Of a stretch of DNA of 64,000 nt, positions 22,562-23,434 are shown piece by piece. Both the position numbers and the translations under genes were made by a program. The stretch is taken from NCBI RefSeq assembly GCF_054482595.1, contig NZ_CM137008.1; one strand, given 5' to 3'. The notes under the pieces were generated by a model, which did no database searches, was not told where the DNA came from, and worked only from the letters and a program-made list of their open reading frames with translations. Position 1 is the stretch's first letter. Every line of letters starts with the position of its first letter.

Positions 22562-23434
22562 TTAGTTAATCAGCTTATCAATCTCGGCAAGGGGTAAATT
22601 TGCCATCTCTGCAACGTCTTCCCGAGACATTCCTTTATTCAGAAGACGCAGGACGAATTCTTGCCTTTCCTCCTGTCTTCCCCTCTCTTCAAACCACTGC
22701 GCCAGCGTCATCATAGACTCCCCTCCCGTTTCCCTGTCTCTCAGCACACCATAAAACAAATCCGCTTGTTCAGTATGACCGCGTTGCAGCATATAGTTTT
22801 GCATGGCAACTAACTGACTTCCGCTAGTGTACCCTTCGTCAATCAGCGTGACCAGTTGCTCCAGCAATAACATTAAGTCGCGCTGGCGAATATGCTTTTG
22901 CAGTAGTTCGAGAATCGCAATCCGCCGGTGCTGCATGATTTCGTCATCCGGTGTGATAGTGATATCCACCAGCGGAAAAGGACTGTTATAGACGCGTCGC
23001 GCCAGCTCCGGCGAGTAAAACATATCAAACCAGCACATTGAGAGCGGATAAGGTGTGGTCTCGCCCTGATAAAACAGTATCGGCACCACCAGCGGCAGCT
23101 TATCGTGATCCGCCTCCAGATGCCGGTGCATGGCAGCAATAGAATAACGCATCATGCGAAAGGCCATTTTCTTATCCGGCTTGCTTTGGTGTTCAATCAC
23201 AACATGCAGATAACCGGGATTGCCCTGCATTTGCACGGAATAGAGCACGTCCGTGCTGTGTCCTTTCAGGCTCTCTTCAATGAAACTCCCCGACTCTAAA
23301 TGAAGCGTGTTGAGGTCACAAAGTTCGCGTAATTCCACTGGCAAATGTATCTCCAGAAAGTCGCGAGCCGTCTCCGCATGCATTAAAAATTGTTTAAATA
23401 CCGCGTCATGCGGTGTAGTACTCGGTGCATCCAT
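22562..23434 (-). CDS. rpnC: Rpn-family (YhgA-like, PDDEXK) recombination-promoting nuclease
   Basis: 290-aa ORF recognised as the yadD/rpnC-type protein, located between panC and panD; N-terminal nuclease region plus short C-terminal tail. Confidence 0.85.
   Translation of the reverse strand: MDAPSTTPHDAVFKQFLMHAETARDFLEIHLPVELRELCDLNTLHLESGSFIEESLKGHSTDVLYSVQMQGNPGYLHVVIEHQSKPDKKMAFRMMRYSIAAMHRHLEADHDKLPLVVPILFYQGETTPYPLSMCWFDMFYSPELARRVYNSPFPLVDITITPDDEIMQHRRIAILELLQKHIRQRDLMLLLEQLVTLIDEGYTSGSQLVAMQNYMLQRGHTEQADLFYGVLRDRETGGESMMTLAQWFEERGRQEERQEFVLRLLNKGMSREDVAEMANLPLAEIDKLIN

Follow-up and report, generated by a model that had tools for sequence, protein, structure and literature searches.

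Internal in-frame starts that yield a second, shorter protein have been described in the rpn genes of Escherichia coli K-12. Retapamulin profiling placed yadD, which is rpnC, among the genes with an in-frame iTIS, and the synonymous-site conservation was locally raised there (Meydan 2019, 10.1101/520783). Onc112 and retapamulin peaks were then reported in all five rpn genes (Zhong et al. 2023 PNAS, PMC10400941), and the five small Rpn proteins, RpnC_S among them, were detected by chromosomal SPA tagging, with RpnA_S being lost upon mutation of its RBS and M244 (PMC10400941). In the text of that article, mutation of an RBS or ATG with loss of the small band is described for RpnA and for a C. 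difficile Rpn, not for RpnC (PMC10400941). The internal initiation in K-12 was reported to take place mainly on a shorter and more abundant internal transcript (PMC10400941).

Growth inhibition, SOS induction, and DNA cleavage by an Rpn_L protein are all countered by its cognate Rpn_S; in vitro, RpnA_S was found to bind RpnA_L and to stop its cleavage activity (PMC10400941). For RpnC, constructs made from the K-12 gene established that RpnC_S blocks the RpnC_L-dependent SOS induction only when the two proteins carry an equal number of 4-aa repeats, and that one 4-aa difference abolished inhibition (PMC10400941). Anti-phage protection was shown for the plasmid-encoded RpnP2 only and not for RpnC (PMC10400941). 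The literature already covers the internal start of rpnC and the small protein made from it, the dependence on repeat length, and the rpnC_Ss gene that some strains carry downstream.

The locus discussed here comes from a stretch of 64,000 nt of contig NZ_CM137008.1 (assembly GCF_054482595.1), hereafter the window, and carries a shorter allele of the same gene. The site within it can be assigned with high confidence to the internal start of E. coli rpnC, and this shorter allele very probably acts as the K-12 allele does, as a two-product toxin-antitoxin module. The next sections discuss the evidence for this assignment, the readings that compete with it, and a second copy of the tail found downstream of the gene.

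The rpnC Gene and Its Internal Start

The region corresponds to panB-panC-rpnC-panD-yadE of E. coli, with the ORFs of PanB, PanC, PanD, and YadE on either side of rpnC, and the K-12 annotation gives the identical gene order around the gene. The rpnC start codon is at 23434 and its TAA stop codon at 22564..22562 on the minus strand (Table 1). The encoded protein is 97% identical to RpnC of K-12, and the E. coli records that are 100% identical to the ORF are annotated as rpnC. Pfam family PF04754 (Transposase_31/YhgA-like, PD-(D/E)XK nuclease) matches residues 7-207 with E=1.7e-87, and the NCBIfam model of the Rpn family, TIGR01784, scores 268.8 bits, with a cut-off of 52.1 bits. The protein has D62, E81, and Q83, which we take to be the catalytic positions, corresponding to D63, E82, and Q84 of RpnA. 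No model of PADLOC-DB 2.0 (2023) matches RpnC. Identity of at least 99% across the whole 1.5-kb region was found in 32 records, and strains XH990, CP53, and ZF8-1 show 100% identity over the region.

Table 1. Features of the rpnC locus, with positions counted from the first nucleotide of the window
Feature	Positions	Strand	Basis or remark
rpnC (yadD), full-length ORF, RpnC_L, 290 aa	22562..23434, stop included	minus	ORF list
N-terminal PD-(D/E)XK nuclease domain, aa 7-207, toxin part	22814..23416	minus	Pfam match coordinates
Internal Shine-Dalgarno (SD) GGGAGGGG	22720..22727, core GGAGG 22722..22726	minus	inside codons T-G-G-E
Tandem in-frame starts ATG-ATG, M241 and M242 of RpnC_L	ATG1 22714..22712, ATG2 22711..22709	minus	
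RpnC_S ORF, nested in frame in rpnC; predicted antitoxin/oligomerization tail	22562..22714	minus	translation
Hypervariable 4-aa (12-nt) repeat region of helix 1, RGRQ-EERQ	22661..22684	minus	two 4-aa units fewer than in K-12 (24-nt gap)
SD-like AAGGGA, 4 nt before the rpnC_Ss ATG	22498..22503	minus	duplex -4.0 kcal/mol, weak
rpnC_Ss, free-standing RpnC tail paralog, 69 aa	22284..22493	minus	ORF list
Downstream copy of the tail segmental duplication	22292..22461		pairs with 22564..22709

The minus strand reads aacGGGAGGGGAGTCTATGATG, or aacGGGAGGGGAGTCTATGATGACG, at the internal site. The initial annotation had placed a GGAGG 7 nt ahead of an in-frame ATG within rpnC, and both the sequence and the reading frame confirm it, the spacer between the GGAGG core and ATG1 being 7 nt. 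It had also put this start about 50 codons before the rpnC stop; translation from ATG1 gives MMTLAQWFEERGRQEERQEFVLRLLNKGMSREDVAEMANLPLAEIDKLIN, 50 aa long and an exact match to the peptide proposed there, and translation from ATG2 gives 49 aa. A second GGAG sits 6 nt ahead of ATG2, and either ATG is plausible as the start when judged from the letters around it. RpnC_S may accordingly be read as a protein of 49 rather than 50 aa: the second ATG, M242, aligns with M244 of RpnA, the validated start of rpnA at codon 244.

A GGAGG at this distance from an in-frame ATG inside a coding region had been called unusual, and the comparison within the window bears this out. When the 18 nt upstream of each internal ATG were paired with the 3' end of 16S rRNA, in every ORF of 150 aa or more on either strand of the window, the rpnC ATG-ATG took ranks 1 and 2 among 432 internal in-frame ATGs, with an SD:anti-SD duplex of -10.5 kcal/mol, the 1st percentile being -9.4 kcal/mol and the median of the ORF starts in the window -3.8 kcal/mol. 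Because it has the strongest SD duplex among the 432 internal in-frame ATGs, the rpnC site goes beyond what chance would give.

The SD, the spacer, and the ATGATG are base-for-base the same as in K-12 rpnC, and the 190 nt upstream of the two ATGs contain five substitutions relative to it. The same arrangement recurs in other rpn genes. A scan of the five K-12 rpn paralogs found an SD and an ATG at codons 241-245, followed by MT(I/L)A, in all five, and the first residue of the RpnA_S structure (PDB 7TH0) is the homologous Met. An SD-like element and an ATG also occur at the homologous position in six of six divergent plasmid rpn genes, which come from Salmonella, Pantoea, Arsenophonus, Klebsiella sp., an IncK plasmid of E. 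coli, and Rickettsia felis. Over these 11 rpn genes the site falls at codons 241-248, or at codon 280 in the longer Rickettsia protein, and a GGAG core stands 7-9 nt ahead of the ATG in 10 of them. The residues encoded over the SD vary within the same set (K-E, G-D, E-G, E-E, E-D, and G-E). As the GGAG is kept though the residues differ, selection would act on the nucleotides or the RNA and not on the protein, which points to a core of the rpn SD that is under selection at the RNA level.

Two further comparisons place the site at a boundary within the protein. Among 15 rpnC alleles, namely 13 sampled from complete E. coli genomes together with K-12 and the window, the GGAGG core and the ATGATG are invariant, with tails that range from 50 to 74 aa. 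The tblastn alignments of RpnC to the plasmid homologues typically stop at query residue 246, and therefore conservation is lost shortly after the internal start, at the beginning of the variable tail. Moreover, free-standing tail genes, represented by ypaA downstream of rpnE and by an ORF on the Klebsiella plasmid, begin exactly at the homologous Met. The anatomy of the site, its exceptional SD, its base identity with K-12, and its conservation over paralogs, alleles, and distant homologues are thus matters of observation. The fit to the reported architecture of intragenic Rpn tail proteins, which the initial annotation had proposed, extends to the nuclease domain, the SD and ATG at its junction with the tail, the homology with RpnA M244, and the 4-aa repeats.

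The signals around the site were also searched. A sigma-70 consensus scan of 22150..23650 gave no promoter inside rpnC, a result that was counted against the two-product reading. The hexamer TTTTAT at 22756..22751, considered by eye as a -10 element, is not proposed as one: K-12 has TTTTAC there, with a difference at a key position. RNA folding around the internal start was like that of shuffled sequences (z=-0.04) and gave no sign of a structured regulatory element, and a search of both strands of 22000..23800 against Rfam returned nothing at E<=1. Two plus-strand ORFs with TTG starts, at 22600..22716 (38 aa) and 22661..22813 (50 aa), were considered as well, and nothing was found in support of them.

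The absence of an internal promoter in the consensus scan and the unremarkable local fold agree with another explanation, in which the SD-like motif and the Met-Met are mere coding sequence (T-G-G-E-S-M-M) or a pause site, and the tail works solely as one domain of RpnC_L; the expression evidence, moreover, comes from the K-12 allele. However, the site is identical to that of K-12, where initiation-arrest profiling and tagging show the small product, the GGAG core keeps its distance of 7-9 nt from the ATG in 10 of the 11 divergent rpn genes with differing amino acids, and the free-standing paralogs begin at the same Met. These points make the coding-sequence explanation highly improbable. The claim that rpnC encodes both a full nuclease and a small tail protein is supported, given a site identical to the K-12 site for which RpnC_S has been published. 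The experiments proposed along with that claim, initiation profiling and tagging among them, have largely been performed already on the K-12 allele.

The two-product mechanism may be pictured as follows. Ribosomes that initiate at the annotated ATG (23434) would produce RpnC_L, a PD-(D/E)XK DNA endonuclease with a C-terminal helical tail, and GGGAGGGG would recruit ribosomes to the ATG at 22714 or at 22711 to produce RpnC_S, the tail alone, of 49-50 aa. With one tail common to both products, RpnC_S would pair with RpnC_L tail to tail, by means of the long first helix, and the nuclease would be held inactive. The specificity of this pairing would be set by the count of 4-residue units in the first helix, with two fewer here than in K-12. 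The nuclease would then stay off until a trigger arrives, with phage infection or alkaline conditions proposed in the literature, and the RpnC system is thought to serve anti-phage defense. The initiation peak, the small protein, and the inhibition of RpnC_L are known from the literature on the K-12 allele, and we infer the same behavior for the allele in the window.

Repeat Number and Predicted Fold of the Tail

Compared with K-12, the tail of this allele is shorter by 24 nt, which correspond to KGIE and KGIQ, that is, two 4-aa units, and by the terminal LI, and it has a few substitutions. Tail lengths of the rpnC alleles step by 4 (50, 54, 58, 62, 66, 70, and 74 aa), and long alleles contain clear 12-nt tandem arrays, one of them of 7.8 copies. 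A tail two units shorter fits the published variation of repeat number from strain to strain. The helix-1 core, from WFEE to KGMS, has 16 residues. Both this core and the 50-aa tail are the shortest in the set of 15 rpnC alleles, in which tails reach 74 aa. Among 5426 complete E. coli genomes, 80 have a tail with at least 99% identity to it.

RpnC_S matches the C-terminal positions 218-273 of TIGR01784 (E=7e-7). Rpn_S proteins are described as compact three-helix bundles in which the first helix is long. The AlphaFold2 model of the 50-aa RpnC_S, for which an alignment of 12 sequences was used as input, is all-helical with a mean pLDDT of 82; the helices span residues 4-11, 14-26, 31-37, and 42-49, and the first two of them form one long, kinked helix in the model. 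A Foldseek search of the PDB with this model gave no significant match, and 7TH0 was absent among the 50 matches listed. The leading matches were HTH domains of KorB, resolvases, and LuxR-type regulators, with TM values of 0.6-0.7 and rmsd values of 0.6-2 Å, none of which is significant. A search of PDB sequences with RpnC_S did not find RpnA_S, the best match being a designed repeat protein. With regard to Pfam, HTH_7 reached E=0.0012 on the RpnC tail, which is below the cut-off, and DUF4351 (PF14261) reached 14.4 bits on it against a cut-off of 25 bits and did not match the 69-aa ORF of rpnC_Ss. In the model, the C-terminal ~35 residues of RpnC (22565..22670, minus strand) superpose on HTH domains, although not significantly.

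A relatedness of the Rpn tail to HTH motifs by HHpred was mentioned by the authors of the K-12 work (PMC10400941). Taken with the model, this leaves room for the idea that the RpnC tail might bind DNA besides dimerizing. Pushed further, the same matches, namely the modeled superposition of the last ~35 residues on KorB, resolvase, and LuxR-type HTH domains, none of them significant, together with the sub-threshold HTH_7 hit and the HHpred remark, would suit a small protein that is made and acts mainly as something other than an antitoxin, for instance an HTH DNA-binding autoregulator of rpnC or of another locus. However, RpnC_S stops the RpnC_L-induced SOS response in a manner specific for repeat number, and RpnA_S binds RpnA_L and blocks its cleavage in vitro; furthermore, antitoxins are often HTH proteins, so that the two roles are compatible. 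A main role other than antitoxin is therefore very unlikely, and the reading of RpnC_S as the antitoxin of a two-product module is retained.

The Free-Standing Tail Gene rpnC_Ss

The rpnC stop codon is followed, after 68 nt, by a second tail gene, rpnC_Ss, whose protein begins with MEIKTRRETRQTLAQWFEE. It is 64% identical to the RpnC tail and matches the C-terminal part of TIGR01784 with E=2.8e-8. The Met-Met of rpnC is replaced in it by R-Q, and a new ATG lies ten codons upstream of the homologous Met. The gene shares two direct repeats with the rpnC tail, D1 of 112 nt (85%) and D2 of 51 nt (80%), at spacings of 272 and 248; the difference between these spacings, 24 nt, equals two repeat units. 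The repeats show that the tail was duplicated locally to give rpnC_Ss. Of 5426 complete E. coli genomes, 1573 carry the unique 5' part of the gene together with the spacer; K-12 is without the gene. The occurrence of rpnC_Ss in some E. coli strains has been published (PMC10400941).

The labels given to rpnC_Ss in RefSeq are inconsistent even on identical DNA, and include 'hypothetical protein', 'RpnC/YadD family protein', and a partial pseudogene; an example of the gene is found at 549..728 of NZ_CP178597.1. A search with PADLOC gave a weak match of rpnC_Ss to the C-terminal end of RmrA (E=5e-4, profile positions 290-336 of 357), which may reflect a shared helical or HTH tail in another defense protein. 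Between the convergent ends of panC and rpnC_Ss there is a GC-rich hairpin at 22193..22223 with a 12-bp stem, TAACTGGCGC...GCGCCAGTTA. For the plus strand (panC) it scores as a terminator, and transcripts of rpnC and rpnC_Ss from the minus strand may make use of it as well.

The helix-1 core of RpnC_Ss has 24 residues (22414..22461) compared with the 16 of the intragenic RpnC_S (22661..22684). The two core lengths were unequal in all 11 Ss-carrying genomes sampled (the window and loci L002-L004 and L018-L024), a small and phylogenetically non-independent sample in which the mismatch is not statistically meaningful, the lengths being widely spread and a mismatch being expected by chance.

This difference in length matters for another account of the locus, according to which RpnC_Ss does the work of the antitoxin against RpnC_L in this strain, leaving the internal start redundant or vestigial. 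The 69-aa tail gene found 68 nt past the rpnC stop is a separate gene and has an ATG of its own, which accords with such an account, as does the report that RpnE_Ss (ypaA) is expressed in K-12 (PMC10400941). However, the core of 24 residues in Ss differs from the 16 in RpnC_L, and a single 4-aa difference abolished inhibition in the K-12 constructs; the SD of rpnC_Ss is weak (-4.0 kcal/mol), and the internal SD is perfectly kept in the Ss-carrying strains. An antitoxin supplied by rpnC_Ss in place of the internal start is thus extremely unlikely, and the internally initiated RpnC_S remains the preferred antitoxin of RpnC_L.

Since a mismatch of one 4-aa unit is enough to abolish cross-inhibition between K-12 constructs, RpnC_Ss is possibly no spare antitoxin for the resident RpnC_L. 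That it would be instead a silent recombination cassette for switching tails, or an orphan antitoxin directed against non-self Rpn nucleases brought in by plasmids or phages, is a speculative proposal, and on balance it is doubtful.

The gene annotated as rpnC in NZ_CP027437.1 (strain 2012C-4221), at 238..1165, is marked as frameshifted; its tail ends with ...DKLINSN like that of Ss, and no separate Ss gene comes after it. To judge from its sequence, it looks like the published fusion of the N-terminal part of rpnC with rpnC_Ss, formed by recombination between the duplicated tails.

Comparison with Known Systems

The gene-within-a-gene antitoxin can be recovered correctly from sequence alone, and nothing in it is biologically new. 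The practical value lies in annotation: RefSeq marks only the long rpnC CDS, and the downstream tail gene inconsistently. The single point where novelty might hide is the length-mismatched copy in rpnC_Ss, which is worth noting because an extra repeat was published to abolish inhibition.

The K-12 pair RpnC_L/RpnC_S (yadD, b0132) shares with the window the same panC-panD locus, an identical SD, spacer, and ATGATG, and the same tail architecture. It differs in its tail, which is 60 aa in K-12 compared with 50 aa here, and in being without a downstream rpnC_Ss. The pair RpnA_L/RpnA_S (yhgA, PDB 7TH0) likewise has an SD and an ATG at the junction of the nuclease domain with the variable tail, and its product starts with MT(I/L)A. 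In contrast to RpnC, RpnA has a single ATG and an AAGGAG SD, and its tail is 19% identical to that of RpnC.

RpnE and YpaA (RpnE_Ss) offer the counterpart of the free-standing downstream tail gene, and some such genes are annotated as DUF4351. The start of ypaA is at the homologous Met, whereas that of rpnC_Ss is 10 codons upstream and has a weak SD. Outside the Rpn family, Cas10d/Cas11d of the type I-D CRISPR system resembles rpnC: initiation inside the gene, in the same frame, produces a short C-terminal protein, which acts as a partner of the long one (PMC10400941). However, the Cas10d/Cas11d pair is complementary and not antagonistic, as opposed to the two products of rpnC, and the proteins are unrelated.
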